IMG/VR virus record: IMGVR_UViG_2737471842_000002
Coordinates: 1-4,180 of that record
DNA: 4,180 bases
DNA from: a virus
Taxonomy: Duplodnaviria; Heunggongvirae; Uroviricota; Caudoviricetes
Reading direction: 5' to 3' (one strand)
Shown: in pieces, positions 1-4,180 of the stretch
Position numbering within the stretch: the first letter of the stretch is position 1
Layout of the letters: every line of letters starts with the position of its first letter
Notes under the pieces: model-generated
Databases searched by the model: none
The model's input: only the letters and a program-made list of their open reading frames with translations
What the model was told of the DNA's origin: nothing
Position numbers and translations under genes: made by a program

Positions 1-1578
1 ACGGCTAACACATGGAGTGCGCGCCAGACTTTCAACGGCGGGATCACCGGGGCGCTGACAGGGAACGCCGACACCGCGACGAAATTAAAAACAGCCATAA
101 ACATTAATGGCGTCAGGTTCGATGGTTCGGCTGACATTAATATCAATACTCTGGTATCACGCGGTCGAGTAACTGCTCTGGCGTCGAATGCGCAGGGGAC
201 ATCCGGGATTCAGCTGTATGAGGCATACAACAATGGCTACCCTTCCCCCTATGGCAATGTGCTTCACCTTAAAGGTGCCACCGCTGCTGGCGAAGGTGAG
301 TTATTCATTGGCTGGAGTGGCACGAGCGGTGACCATGCGCCCGTACATATCCGTTCGCGGCGGGATACTGATTCTGCCAACTGGTCTGAATGGGCGCAGG
401 TCTATACGTCAAAAGATTCCGTTCCCGGCGTTAATGCCAAAGGGAATCAGGACACCTCTGGTAATGCGGCTACAGCGACCAAATTGCAGACAGCACGTAC
501 TATTAACGGTGTCTCGTTTGATGGTTCTAAAAACATTGAGCTAACAGCGGAAGATTTAAATCTACAGGAATTCATTAATAAAGCAAATAATGCCGTTCAG
601 CGTTCAGGCGATATCTTGTCCGGCGGACTTACTTTTGAAAACGACTCAATCCTTGCCTGGATTCGGAATACTGACTGGGCAAAGATTGGATTTAAAAATG
701 ATGCCGACAGCGATACTGATTCATACATGTGGTTTGAAACAGGCGACAACGGAAATGAATATTTCAAATGGAGAAGCCGCCAGAGCACCACAACAAAAGA
801 CCTGATGAATCTTAAATGGGATGCTTTGTCTGTCCTTGTTAAAGCCCTTTTCAGCAGTGAAGTAAAAATATCGACAGTCAATGCACTGAGGATATTTAAT
901 TCATCTTTTGGTGCTATTTTTCGTCGTTCTGAAGAATGCCTGCATATCATCCCTACACGAGAGAATGAGGGAGAAAATGGTGATATAGGGCCACTACGCC
1001 CCTTTACGCTTAATCTCAGAACTGGTCGGATAAGCATGGGGCATGGTCTGGATGTTACAGGAGATATATTTGCAAACCGTTTTTTAATTAACAGCAGTAC
1101 AGGCATGTGGATTCATATGCGTGACCAGAACGTTATTATGGGACGTAATGCGGTATCCACTGATGGTGCTCAGGCTTTGCTCCGTCAGGACCATGCCGAC
1201 CGCAAATTTATGATTGGCGGTCTGGGAAATAAGCAATTTGGCATCTACATGATTAATAATTCAAGGACAGCCAATGGCACCGATGGTCAGGCGTACATGG
1301 ATAATAACGGGAACTGGCTTTGCGGCTCGCAAGTTATTCCCGGCAACTATGGCAATTTTGATTCCAGATATGTGAAAGATGTTCGACTTGGTTCACAGCA
1401 ATATTATGGAGTGAACAACTGGCAAACATGGAATTTCCAGTGCCCGTCAGGTCATGTATTGTCTGGTATTAATGTTCAGGATACAGGGTCCAACTCTGCC
1501 GATAATATAGCTGGCGTTTATTACAGACCCGTTCAAAAGTATATAAATGGCACCTGGTATAATGTAGCGAGCGTTTAA
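1..1578 (+). CDS. Phage tail fibre protein, C-terminal region (5'-partial; frame open to window start), variant A receptor-binding domain
   Basis: Frame 1 is open from nt 1 with no stop until TAA at 1576-1578; the ORF-track start at 259 is a GTG inside the open frame and not a credible start. Contains two copies of a tail-fibre repeat motif (TATKL.TA..INGV.FDGS..I). First ~188 aa are near-identical to the - strand fibre encoded in the inverted repeat. Followed 1 nt later by a chaperone gene. Gly/Asn/Ser/Thr/Trp-rich distal domain is typical of fibre tips. Confidence 0.8.
64..144 (+). repeat. Tail-fibre repeat motif, copy 1 (coding-level direct repeat within the fibre)
   Basis: Encodes [27 protein letters not shown], which matches the second copy [27 protein letters not shown] at 463..540. 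Resembles the phage tail fibre repeat family found in coliphage side tail fibres (recalled, not searched). Confidence 0.6.
463..540 (+). repeat. Tail-fibre repeat motif, copy 2
   Basis: See copy 1; nucleotide similarity between copies is moderate, protein motif is conserved. Confidence 0.6.
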
Positions 1579-1579
1579 T

Positions 1580-2107
1580 ATGATGCACTTAAAGAACATA
1601 AAAGCGGGCAACGCTAAAACACTGGAACAGTATGAGTTAACAAAGAAACACGGAGTTATCTGGCTTTACTCTGAGGACGGAAAAAACTGGTATGAGGAAG
1701 TGAAAAACTTTCAGCCAGACACAATAAAGATTGTTTACGATGCAAATAATATTATTGTCGCCATCACTAAAGATGCCTCCACGCTTAACCCTGAAGGTTT
1801 TAGCGTCGTTGAGATTCCAGATATTACAGCCAACCGCCGCGCTGATGATTCAGGAAAGTGGATGTTTAAGGATGGAGCTGTAGTTAAACGGATTTATACG
1901 GCAGACGAACAGCAACAACAAGCCGAATCACAAAAGGCCGCATTGCTTTCCGAAGCTGAATCAGTCATCCAGCCGCTGGAACGCGCTGTCAGGCTGAATA
2001 TGGCAACAGACGAGGAACGCACACGACTGGAAGCATGGGAACGCTACAGTGTTCTGGTCAGCCGTGTGGATACGGCAAATCCTGAATGGCCACAAAAGCC
2101 TGAATAA
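1580..2107 (+). CDS. Tail fibre assembly protein (Tfa chaperone, Mu U-like), 175 aa
   Basis: ATG at 1580 lies 1 nt after the fibre stop, the coupled arrangement typical of fibre-chaperone pairs. The 175-aa product is a clear paralogue of the - strand 177-aa ORF (shared MMHLKNI..AGN.KT.EQY.LTK...[38 protein letters not shown], terminal ..PE). Size and position match Mu/P1 U proteins as I recall them. Confidence 0.85.
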
Positions 2108-2112
2108 AAATT

Positions 2113-2132
2113 AAGGCCCGCTATCGGGCCTT
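2113..2132. terminator. Putative bidirectional intrinsic terminator shared by the convergent chaperone genes
   Basis: AAGGCCCG-ctat-CGGGCCTT forms a perfect 8-bp GC-rich stem with a 4-nt loop in the 28-nt gap between the two stops. Read on the - strand it is followed by AATTTTTAT (good T-tract); on the + strand the downstream tract (GTCTCATT) is weaker. Confidence 0.6.
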
Positions 2133-2135
2133 GTC

Positions 2136-2669
2136 TCATTCAGGTTGTTCGGGAAATGTTACTGGCAGGCTGGAGGTGTCTGTAGATTCGACTTTCTGCG
2201 CATAGAGCATCCACTCGGTTAATTTTTGTTTATTCTCGTCGGAAATGATGCCCAGCCGTAGCTGTGAGTCCCATAGCTGGGTTTTATCCCTGACAAGTTG
2301 CAACAGGCTTTGCTTTTCATTCTCTGCCTGCTGCCTCTGTTCCTCCTCGGTATAAGTTCGCTTTATCACTACGCCATCTTTGAACATCCATTTACCCGAA
2401 ATATCAGCCCGGCGATTTGCTGTAATATCAGGAACCTCAACGACGCTTGCGCCTTCTGGATTAATTGCTGAAACATCCTTTTCAATACAAATAATAACGT
2501 CGTTGTGGTCATAGACCATTTTCAACGTATCAGGCTGAAAGTTCTTTTGTTCCTCATACCAGTTTTTTCCATCCTCTGTATAAAGCCATTTGATGTTAAA
2601 TTGTTTCGTTAGCTGGTATTGCTCTTTTGTTTTAGGGTTGCCAGCTGTAATATTTTTTAAGTGCATCAT
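2136..2669 (-). CDS. Tail fibre assembly protein paralogue (Tfa chaperone, U'-like), 177 aa
   Basis: ATG at 2669 (reverse strand) lies 2 nt after the stop of the - strand fibre ORF. Paralogous to the + strand chaperone, about 60-70% identical over the N-terminal ~115 aa by eye and divergent in the C-terminal third. Converges on the + strand chaperone gene. Confidence 0.85.
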   Translation of the reverse strand: MMHLKNITAGNPKTKEQYQLTKQFNIKWLYTEDGKNWYEEQKNFQPDTLKMVYDHNDVIICIEKDVSAINPEGASVVEVPDITANRRADISGKWMFKDGVVIKRTYTEEEQRQQAENEKQSLLQLVRDKTQLWDSQLRLGIISDENKQKLTEWMLYAQKVESTDTSSLPVTFPEQPE

Positions 2670-2671
2670 AA

Positions 2672-4180
2672 TTAAATACTCCCCGCGTTATACCACGTTC
2701 CATTAATGCAATACTGAATTGGCCTTGCTTGTGTTGTATCAATTAATTCATCACGGTTTCCGTTAACTGAACCCGTAACGACATAACCTGACCTGTCAGA
2801 CCAGCCGGGACCATTCCATGTCTGAACAGATGACAGACCGCCAAGGCGAATACCTGTAATAAACCTTGAGTTACATTCTGCCTGCGTATATGCACCAACA
2901 TCTCCCGCAGAGGGTTTGCGGGTTGTGGTGTAAAACTCTGACCAGTCAGCTTCAAAGCCATAACCATCACGCGCTGAACGATAAAAGATTCCGCCATTTC
3001 TGTAATTCACTCGGAACTGTACAGCAGGGCAGCTCCCCGTATTCATATTGAAGTGGAGGATTAATGTCGATGCGCCACCAATATTTGCGTTATAGACCCC
3101 GCTATTCCAGTTCCAGCCAACAGCTTTATCATTTCCGACAGTGCTTCCTGTTTGCCCTAAAGCAAATGCAGGCTGCTGGTTTTTCGTGTTGTAGTCTCGT
3201 CGCCAGCCAGGAGCATAAGCATCACCATGATTAATATAGGTGAATTGAGCGTTAGTGGTGCCGCCTCCGGTGGAAGTGCTTGGTGTTGTTACACGGATGG
3301 TCATGGCACCTTTATTACCCATAACCTCAATAACGCAACCTGCAAGATGAATAGTTCCACAGCCAGTATCGGTAATAATTTTATTATTGCCGTATGACCA
3401 TGAACATTTGCACATCCAGTATGGGTGATTGAATGCTCCTTGAGAATCCAGCCATTCAATCAATTGTGCCGTCGTCCAGTTTCCTGCACCTGTGCTAATA
3501 GCACCATGAAAAGCGCGACATGCACCAATATTTTTAGTGAAGGTATCTTTTCCTGGAATATCTGCGCCGTTCTGGTTTTTCTGTAATGCTCCTGAGGCTA
3601 ATTCTACGGTTTGCTCAAGATTTAAATCTTCCGCCGTTAACTCAATATTTTTAGAGCCATCAAACGAGACACCGTTAATAGTACATGCTGTCTGCAATTT
3701 GGTCGCTGTAGCCGCATTACCAGAGGTATCCTGATCCCCTTTAGCATTGACGCCGGGAACTGAATCTTTTGACGTATAGACCTGCGCCCATTCTGACCAG
3801 TTGGCAGAATCAGTATCCCGCCGCGAACGGATATGTACGGGCGCATGGGCACCGCTCGTGCCACTCCAGCCAATGAATAACTCACCTTCGCCAGCAGCGG
3901 TGGCACCTTTAAGGTGAAGCACATTGCCATAGGGGGAAGGGTAGCCATTGTTGTATGCCTCATACAGCTGAATCCCGGATGTTCCCTGTGCATTCGCCTC
4001 CAAGGCTGTTACGCGACCGCGCGATACCAGAGTATTGATATTAATGTCACCAGAACCATCGAACCTGACGCCATTAATGTTTCTGGCTGTTTTCAATTTC
4101 GTTGCGGTATCGGCGTTCCCTGTCAGCGCTCCGGTGATCCCGCCGTTGAAAGTCTGGCGTGCACTCCATGTGTTAGCCGT
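2672..4180 (-). CDS. Phage tail fibre protein, C-terminal region (5'-partial; frame open to window end), variant B receptor-binding domain
   Basis: Reverse-strand frame is open from nt 4180 down to the stop at 2674-2672; the ORF-track start at 4096 is a TTG inside the open frame. The region encoded by 3618..4180 is near-identical to the + strand fibre, then diverges completely into a different Gly/Asn/Thr/Trp-rich distal domain. The extreme C-terminus (INGTWYNAGSI) resembles the + strand fibre C-terminus ([11 protein letters not shown]). Confidence 0.8.
   Translation of the reverse strand, partial: TANTWSARQTFNGGITGALTGNADTATKLKTARNINGVRFDGSGDININTLVSRGRVTALEANAQGTSGIQLYEAYNNGYPSPYGNVLHLKGATAAGEGELFIGWSGTSGAHAPVHIRSRRDTDSANWSEWAQVYTSKDSVPGVNAKGDQDTSGNAATATKLQTACTINGVSFDGSKNIELTAEDLNLEQTVELASGALQKNQNGADIPGKDTFTKNIGACRAFHGAISTGAGNWTTAQLIEWLDSQGAFNHPYWMCKCSWSYGNNKIITDTGCGTIHLAGCVIEVMGNKGAMTIRVTTPSTSTGGGTTNAQFTYINHGDAYAPGWRRDYNTKNQQPAFALGQTGSTVGNDKAVGWNWNSGVYNANIGGASTLILHFNMNTGSCPAVQFRVNYRNGGIFYRSARDGYGFEADWSEFYTTTRKPSAGDVGAYTQAECNSRFITGIRLGGLSSVQTWNGPGWSDRSGYVVTGSVNGNRDELIDTTQARPIQYCINGTWYNAGSI
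2679..2684 (-). promoter_or_regulatory. Possible Shine-Dalgarno for the - strand chaperone gene
   Basis: Reverse-strand GGGGAG lies 9 nt upstream of the ATG at 2669, inside the last codons of the fibre gene. The + strand chaperone has no comparably clear SD (only GAGCG), consistent with translational coupling. Confidence 0.4.
3641..3718 (-). repeat. Tail-fibre repeat motif, copy 2 mirror in the right inverted-repeat arm
   Basis: Mirror of 463..540; the - strand encodes [27 protein letters not shown]. Confidence 0.6.
4037..4117 (-). repeat. Tail-fibre repeat motif, copy 1 mirror in the right inverted-repeat arm
   Basis: Mirror of 64..144; the - strand encodes [27 protein letters not shown]. 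Confidence 0.6.

Follow-up and report, generated by a model that had tools for sequence, protein, structure and literature searches.

The serine DNA invertase family to which Cin of phage P1 belongs also includes Pin of e14, Hin of Salmonella and Min of p15B, and in the e14 P, Salmonella H and p15B Min systems it is a promoter or the 5' part of a gene that stays constant outside the invertible segment. The same switching logic is found in the G segments of Mu and SfMu, which work with Gin and gix and where the inverted repeats of Mu are 34 bp in length. For P1, the cassette of Sc, Sv/U, Sv'/U' and cin has been described together with its role in host range, and invertase-driven inversion with a change in host range is established for the phage itself (PMC6906374, PMC13172314); the Min system of p15B shares both the family and the principle (PMC6906374). 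The C segment with its Cin is already known as a textbook inversion switch, and the locus considered here adds little to that biology. What, then, does this stretch of DNA share with the P1 cassette, and where does it depart from it?

The window, by which is meant the whole stretch that was analysed, is the entire 4180-bp draft-assembly contig JUDK01000050.1 (assembly GCA_000798275.1) and so comes without flanks, these being placed on other contigs of that assembly. Judged from its sequence, it most probably represents, at a probability of about 0.93, the invertible C segment of a P1-like phage-plasmid minus the outermost 49 bp on each side. In support of this reading, P1 positions 32274-36431 align to the window by BLAST, with 92.4% identity across 92% of the window length, and these positions lie inside the annotated 'invertible segment of P1 DNA', which according to the annotation is inverted by the site-specific recombinase Cin. 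P1-like IncY plasmids match 100% of the window length at 96% identity, and 83 plasmids cover at least 80% of it. The class to which the first-pass annotation had assigned the window, that of the Mu G and P1 C inversion switches, is thereby borne out, as is its remark on dimensions: the P1 C segment measures 4256 bp between crossovers and the present variant 4278 bp, the inner 4180 of which make up the window. Neither a cix crossover site nor an invertase gene lies within the window. The absence of the crossover sites and of Sc had gone unremarked in the first-pass annotation, as had the likelihood that the symmetric window ends are assembly breakpoints rather than biological boundaries.

Table 1. 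Features of the 4180-bp window.
Feature	Position	Strand	Description
Left inverted-repeat arm	1..570	+	inner 570 nt of the ~619-nt repeat; codes for the first 190 aa of the Sv frame
Sv, 3' part of tail-fibre gene S	1..1578	+	525 codons plus stop; 5' end open; 0 internal stops
U, tail-fibre assembly chaperone paired with Sv	1580..2107	+	175 aa; Caudo_TAP
GC-rich central hairpin	2113..2132		between the stop codons of U and U'
U', tail-fibre assembly chaperone paired with Sv'	2136..2669	-	177 aa; Caudo_TAP
Sv', alternative tail-fibre 3' part	2672..4180 (read 4180-2672)	-	502 codons plus stop; 5' end open; 0 internal stops
Right inverted-repeat arm	3611..4180	-	codes for the first 190 aa of the Sv' frame

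The likeness to the P1 C segment (AF234172 / NC_005856) extends to the order Sv-U, hairpin, U'-Sv', to inverted repeats of ~0.62 kb with cix at their outer ends, and to the setting of the near-identical copies described below, which likewise have cin on one side and Sc on the other. DNA identity to P1 is 92-94% across most of the window. The differences are that window positions 1391-1534 are left unaligned by blastn, that Sv is just 76% identical as protein to P1 S (residues 471-987), and that the arms of the repeat mismatch at 32 of 570 positions in the window against 8 of 570 in P1. The closest complete records are P1-like IncY phage-plasmids such as pTK3896_3 of E. coli and p18B233LT1 of E. 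fergusonii, which at 96% identity have the same flanks and occur in both orientations; their ~4% DNA divergence from the window is concentrated in the repeat arms and Sv'.

All four genes are homologous to counterparts in P1 and Mu, Sv/U being encoded by the plus strand and Sv'/U' by the minus strand. The Sv product, which gives a Pfam match to Gp34_trimer (E 1.5e-10), is 94.7% identical to SfMu gp52 and 98.5% identical to its pTK3896_3 counterpart, and the Sv' product, with a weak gp37_C match (E 3e-4) that falls under the curated cutoff, is 95.8% identical to P1 Sv'. Both chaperones match Caudo_TAP strongly (E 1.3e-37 for U and 2e-36 for U'), U being 93% identical to P1 U and 92% to Mu U, and U' 95.5% to P1 U' and 98.9% to Mu U'. 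The mirror symmetry of the window reaches into this chaperone pair, with 71-76% DNA identity and 58% protein identity between U and U'. The two fibre-chaperone pairs had been described as lying head-to-head around a central hairpin; the pairs and the hairpin stand, but the 3' ends meet at the centre and the genes are therefore convergent, tail-to-tail.

The hairpin at which they meet is strong and conserved, its stem showing no variation among P1, Mu, SfMu and two plasmids, and the outer stem (2097-2146) is built from the final codons of U and U', which mirror each other. Folding energies are -25.7 and -27.9 kcal/mol on the two strands, with z of -5.9 and -7.3. On the minus strand the structure is terminator-like, with the T-run tail AATTTTTATT; the plus strand has no T-run after the hairpin, such that a terminator role in the U direction is only inferred. 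The hairpin would probably serve to stop transcription from entering the silent pair in antisense. An Rfam scan of the window at the gathering threshold returned no structured RNAs, and a promoter scan gave 3 weak sites against 7.1 expected, leaving internal promoters unsupported, which fits expression from outside the segment.

The arms of the inverted repeat, 94% complementary with 32 mismatches, the first of them at position 21, cannot be a product of chance within 4.2 kb. The first-pass annotation had put the repeat at ~563 bp, a figure that corresponds to the BLAST-aligned length of what are real 570-nt arms. In P1, pTK3896_3 and L003 (one of the copies considered below) the repeat runs 49 nt beyond the window to the cix crossover, for a total of 619 nt. 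Across the repeat the Sv and Sv' proteins are 95% identical, with 9 differences in 190 aa, and inside of it only the last ~75 aa can be aligned, at 36% identity. The repeat had also been credited with encoding the shared upstream part of the fibre, which needs correcting: what it codes for is the beginning of the invertible region, and Sc, the constant N-terminal part of the fibre, is absent from the window.

As the window is a whole contig, the flanks in which an invertase gene and crossover sites had been anticipated were sought in near-identical copies on longer contigs, and were found there. These copies, L003, L004 and L005, are 99.93% identical to the window (3 mismatches) and have a P1-like context: one flank holds R, gp16 and baseplate genes, and the opposite flank cin, holins, LydB and DarA. 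In all three, the cix sites TTATCCAATACCTTGGTTTAAGAGAA and CAATCCTAAACCTTGGTTTAAGAGAA lie exactly 49 nt outside the window ends and are identical to P1 cixR and cixL, where the P1 annotation places the crossover. L003 and L004 encode a 186-aa serine recombinase with Resolvase and HTH_7 domains, identical to P1 Cin at 185 of 186 residues, within the gene for which the recombinational enhancer matches at 68 of 72 positions; the late promoter LPs matches at 18 of 19. The constant and variable fibre parts are joined in frame: Sc+Sv makes up an S of 995 aa in L003 and also in L013, and Sc+Sv' an S' of 972 aa in L005 and also in L014, with 1410 nt, or 470 codons, between the start codon of S or S' and the window end.

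Both orientations, a further expectation of the first-pass annotation, are present among these copies, L003 on the one hand and L004 and L005 on the other, so that the refuting case which that annotation had named does not hold for them. Sc adjoins the Sv arm in L003 and the Sv' arm in L005, and in L004 the Sv arm has cin as its neighbour. At position 21, the base specific to each arm moves with the segment, which places the point of exchange in the outermost 69 bp. Both orientations are also seen in sibling complete plasmids of E. fergusonii, for which the orientation of this segment is the sole difference: AP028823 and AP028829 share the coordinates of the flanking genes and carry the segment in opposite orientation; six such plasmids in one coordinate frame comprise two in the plus and four in the minus orientation.

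The mechanism proposed on this basis is that of P1. The complete 4278-bp segment has on one side Sc, the constant 5' part of gene S, whose transcription would start at a late promoter that precedes gene R, and on the other side cin, which encodes the serine invertase. Each ~619-bp repeat carries a cix site at its outer end, the two sites being inverted relative to one another, and recombination between them by Cin would flip the whole segment; by analogy with P1, host Fis and the enhancer within cin would assist. In the C(+) orientation Sc is in frame with Sv, followed by U, and in the C(-) orientation it is joined to Sv', followed by U'; expression would be limited to the pair that is co-oriented with the late promoter. 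Since either tip would be expressed according to orientation, a lysogen population is predicted to make two types of particle, with two receptor-binding tips and hence two host ranges. The catalysis by Cin, the requirement for Fis, the exclusive use of the late promoter and the effect on host range are carried over from what is established for P1 and Mu, and would apply here by analogy.

The relationship to Mu is close at the centre of the segment. The G segments of Mu, D108 and SfMu are 89-91% identical to window positions ~605-3615, the central ~3 kb, hairpin included. This homology ends at the inner edge of the window repeats, near 605 and 3615, and the boundary of the Mu G segment lies only ~50 nt outside the matched DNA, so that the 0.6-kb arms are without an equivalent in Mu. 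The flanks are also unrelated, Mu being a transposable Muvirus and P1 a plasmid prophage. A Mu-type G segment was accordingly rejected as an identification, on the grounds that the 570-nt repeats are unmatched in Mu and SfMu and that the context of the copies is P1-like. The C segments of P7, D6 and RCS47 have the same architecture as the window at 88-89% identity over 88-92% of its length, and have thus diverged further than P1 itself. The remaining systems, compared through BLAST lists at most, also differ: the e14 P segment is far shorter than the segment of the window, Hin flips a promoter and not gene ends, and Min uses six sites, whereas the window has no internal ones.

It is conceivable that the switch is frozen in the source strain, through inactivation of cin or of a cix site, so that a fixed inverted duplication expresses one fibre only. 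The window itself contains neither cin nor cix, and decay of this kind does occur, as in CP027309, which has a recombinase cut short by IS1203 and a frameshift in Sv, and in P1-like plasmids with a truncated cin (PMC6906374). A frozen state is nevertheless unlikely for the source strain, given that (i) the window retains the two fibre frames and the two chaperones undamaged, and (ii) the copies that match it at 99.93%, which are found in both orientations, encode an intact Cin and keep the pair of cix sites.

The length of the arms raises the separate matter of how inversion comes about, as ~0.6 kb of 94% identical sequence is a possible substrate for general homologous (RecA-type) recombination, which might then be the main route in place of a site-specific invertase. 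The arms are mosaic, and the only differences of L003, L004 and L005 from the window, at positions 72, 87 and 98, are all the bases of the other arm, indicating that some arm-to-arm exchange or gene conversion occurs. As the principal means of inversion, however, RecA-type recombination is very improbable: crossovers along 619 bp would mostly yield chimeric arms, yet in the same three copies all arm differences from position 21 inward stay with their own variable part, the exchange is confined to the outermost stretch that includes cix, and near-identical Cin, enhancer and both cix sites have been kept beside the segment. More improbable still is a multiple-inversion, shufflon-like arrangement as in p15B Min, in which internal crossover sites would allow more than two fibre ends to be shuffled. 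Min-type invertases do occur on P1-like plasmids (PMC6906374), but the window has just two fibre ends and two chaperones. A search of it with the cix 26-mer, allowing up to 3 mismatches, gave no matches, and one with the 12-nt cix core, allowing up to 2, gave a single match, which had 2 mismatches, where chance would give 0.54; a multi-site system was rejected because no internal cix-like site was found.

The departures from P1 are limited to an SfMu-like Sv tip and to repeat arms that are more diverged and mosaic. At somewhat less than even odds, the allele may be a functional mosaic, in which P1-type repeats and Sv' are combined with the SfMu-like Sv tip to give a host range unlike that of P1. 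The arms, which are patchy and unusually diverged, may bear the trace of ongoing gene conversion or exchange involving a second lineage of plasmids and, if this were true, the 'shared' shaft would also differ between the two fibre forms. A swap of the Sv and Sv' arms by homologous recombination in CP027309, suggested by the best match of window positions 1-330 lying on its Sv' side, was rejected, as the variant patch is present in both arms of CP027309 and of CP077485, which makes this a case of lineage mosaicism or gene conversion and not of a swap.

Hundreds of near-identical copies of the C segment already lie in public plasmid records, and the practical value of the present case is for annotation and assembly. 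A lone contig of ~4 kb with mirror-symmetric ends and two truncated tail-fibre genes flags a P1-like phage-plasmid in a draft genome, and such contigs should be joined to the contigs that carry Sc and cin and not annotated as a pair of partial genes or pseudogenes. As host range is set by Sv and Sv', the Sv allele could also interest those who engineer P1 particles to deliver DNA. With regard to gene calling, the two 118-aa open reading frames at 188-544 and 3637-3993 are one alternative frame mirrored by the repeat and antisense, and were treated as spurious.

The window is an already-described inversion switch of the type found in the C segment, the invertible tail-fibre segment of phage P1, and it is present in many public records. 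In a Megablast search 92% of it aligns, with 92.4% identity, to P1 positions 32274-36431, a match that falls inside a feature annotated at 32225-36480 as 'invertible segment of P1 DNA', with inversion by the site-specific recombinase Cin. Among complete records the best matches are to P1-like IncY plasmids from E. coli and E. fergusonii, with 96% identity across 100% of the window, and the G segments of Mu, D108 and SfMu match its central ~3 kb at 89-91%. The comparison with P1 and Mu had been recommended by the first-pass annotation, which proposed a switch of the P1 C/Mu G type, and that reading is supported both by the match to the annotated P1 segment and by the cin gene, cix sites and constant fibre part found beside near-identical copies. 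The window differs from P1 in that the tip of its plus-strand fibre part is SfMu-like and not P1-like, blastn leaves positions 1391-1534 unaligned to P1, and its repeat arms differ from one another at 32/570 positions, against 8/570 in P1.

As had been anticipated, an inverted repeat lies at the window ends and encloses two fibre parts, each with its own chaperone, around a central hairpin. The chaperones are ORFs matching Caudo_TAP, which is a tail-fibre assembly protein family. However, the gene pairs Sv-U on the plus strand and U'-Sv' on the minus strand, described at first as head-to-head, instead converge tail-to-tail.

Features of the window and identities to their counterparts in P1 and other relatives
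Feature	Position	Strand	Description	Identity to P1	Identity to others
Inverted repeat, 570 nt	1-570 and 3611-4180		Arms 94% complementary, 32 mismatches		
Sv fibre part	1 to stop 1576-1578	+	Frame 1 open from base 1, 525 codons	76% (S)	94.7% SfMu gp52; 98.5% pTK3896_3
U chaperone	1580-2107	+	175 aa, Pfam Caudo_TAP, E 1e-37	93%	92% Mu U
GC-rich hairpin AAGGCCCG-CTAT-CGGGCCTT	2113-2132		Between stop codons of U and U'		
U' chaperone	2669-2136	-	177 aa, Pfam Caudo_TAP, E 2e-36	95.5%	98.9% Mu U'
Sv' fibre part	4180 to stop 2672-2674	-	Mirrored frame open from base 4180, 502 codons	95.8%	

Pfam searches give a Gp34_trimer fibre-domain match for the plus-strand part and, for the minus-strand part, a weak gp37_C match under the curated cutoff. 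The repeat had been taken to encode the shared upstream part of the fibre, which holds insofar as it codes for a near-alike stretch in Sv and Sv' (9/190 residues differ), but the true constant 5' part of the gene, Sc, lies outside the window. Past the repeat the two fibre proteins align only over their last ~75 residues, with 36% identity. U and U', with 58% protein identity, are paralogues. Each arm also contains two copies of a ~78-nt motif (61-138 and 460-537, mirrored at 4043-4120 and 3644-3721), which surfaces in addition as an inverted pair in the inverted-repeat search and codes for the repeated fibre motif N-A-(D/A)-T-A-T-K-L-x-T-A-x-x-I-N-G-V-x-F-D-G-S. Another reading frame of the repeat holds mirrored 118-aa ORFs, at 188-544 (+) and 3637-3993 (-), which are probably spurious and are present twice only because the repeat DNA is itself duplicated.

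The central hairpin is extended to 2097-2146 by an outer stem built from the final codons of U and U', which mirror each other. Its folding energies on the two strands are -25.7 and -27.9 kcal/mol (z -5.9 and -7.3), its stem is unchanged across P1, Mu, SfMu and two plasmids, and it is followed by a T-run on the minus strand only. The loop (2121-2124) reads CTAT in the window as in P1 and the plasmids, ATAT in SfMu and ATAG in Mu, the last being the exact reverse complement of CTAT.

The window itself holds neither cix sites nor an invertase. Three longer contigs (L003, L004 and L005) carry the segment with 3 mismatches, at 99.93% identity, and the suggested search of the flanks for an invertase and crossover sites, when run on these copies, recovered both. 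The recombinase, as found in L003, is a Cin-like protein of 186 aa with Resolvase and HTH_7 domains, identical to P1 Cin at 185/186 residues. Exactly 49 nt beyond each window end is a crossover site, TTATCCAATACCTTGGTTTAAGAGAA towards Sc and CAATCCTAAACCTTGGTTTAAGAGAA towards cin, and the two have the same sequences as P1 cixR and cixL. The segment in full therefore measures 4278 bp, with a repeat of 619 bp; the P1 annotation puts the crossover at the same point, 49 nt outside the window-equivalent ends. L003 follows the P1 gene order, with baseplate genes, gp16, R, S, U, U', Sv', the recombinase, two holins, LydB and DarA, and its S is a 995-aa product in which Sc is fused in frame to Sv. A near-identical copy matches the P1 enhancer inside cin at 68/72 positions and, upstream of R, late promoter LPs at 18/19.

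The segment occurs naturally in both orientations. L003 has an Sc-Sv arm junction with cin beside the Sv' arm, L004 has cin beside the Sv arm, and L005 has an Sc-Sv' arm junction that generates, again by in-frame fusion, a 972-aa S'. At position 21 the Sv arm has G and the Sv' arm A, and this arm-specific base moves with the segment, which places the exchange point in the outermost 69 bp, where cix is contained. This fits site-specific recombination and speaks against crossovers along the repeat, such that inversion driven by RecA is unlikely given the junctions of these three contigs. Independently of them, in two complete plasmids of E. fergusonii, AP028823 and AP028829, the recombinase gene and R occupy the same record coordinates with the segment in opposite orientations, and among six E. 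fergusonii plasmids in one coordinate frame the segment is plus in two and minus in four. A search of the window for internal cix-like sites found none, which excludes a multi-site inversion system. That the switch might be frozen in the source strain draws on the location of cin and cix on contigs other than the window, and on a decayed example in NZ_CP027309.1 (1501-6266), where the recombinase gene is truncated beside an IS1203 insertion and Sv is broken into two CDS by a frameshift of 1 nt; we consider it improbable.

With the anatomy, the sites, invertase and enhancer beside near-identical copies, the in-frame fusions to either part and both orientations established, the working of a Cin-type switch can be outlined by analogy with P1 and Mu. 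Cin, together with the enhancer and host Fis, would invert the segment at cix, and late transcription from upstream of R would then cover Sc together with the variable part and chaperone that are co-oriented with it. Read-through into the silent pair would probably be reduced by the hairpin, and the two fibre tips would be expected to bind different LPS structures, thereby conferring two host ranges (PMC6906374, PMC13172314).

The window is identical to the complete 4180-bp contig JUDK01000050.1 of assembly GCA_000798275.1, a record without flanks. The two ends mirror each other exactly, each lying 20 nt further out than the first mismatch between the arms (21/4160), and are probably assembly breakpoints; they would fit a de Bruijn break at k = 21 caused by collapse of the outer 69 bp, over which the arms are perfectly identical. 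Such a collapse is supported by the 24 contigs encoding an identical U protein: 12 of them are 2-5 kb long and stand alone, and several of these end within the repeat. L003, L004 and L005 depart from the window at just three positions, 72, 87 and 98, where these contigs have the base of the opposite arm, a pattern reflecting either a short gene-conversion tract or the mixing of reads between arms in short-read assembly.

Within the window, 17 of the 32 arm differences fall between positions 21 and 198, in the Sv arm. Plasmids CP027309 and CP077485 have this variant patch in each of their arms, which makes the arms mosaic, as a result of gene conversion or of exchange between lineages; in the arm comparison it was not found in P1, pTK3896_3 or the E. 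fergusonii plasmids. A full-length copy of the segment, with 93.5% identity, is also present at 1911081-1915281 of NZ_CP015229.1, a 5.5-Mb E. coli chromosome record of strain 06-00048, which has a second copy on a plasmid; the chromosomal copy suggests an integrated P1-like element or an assembly join.
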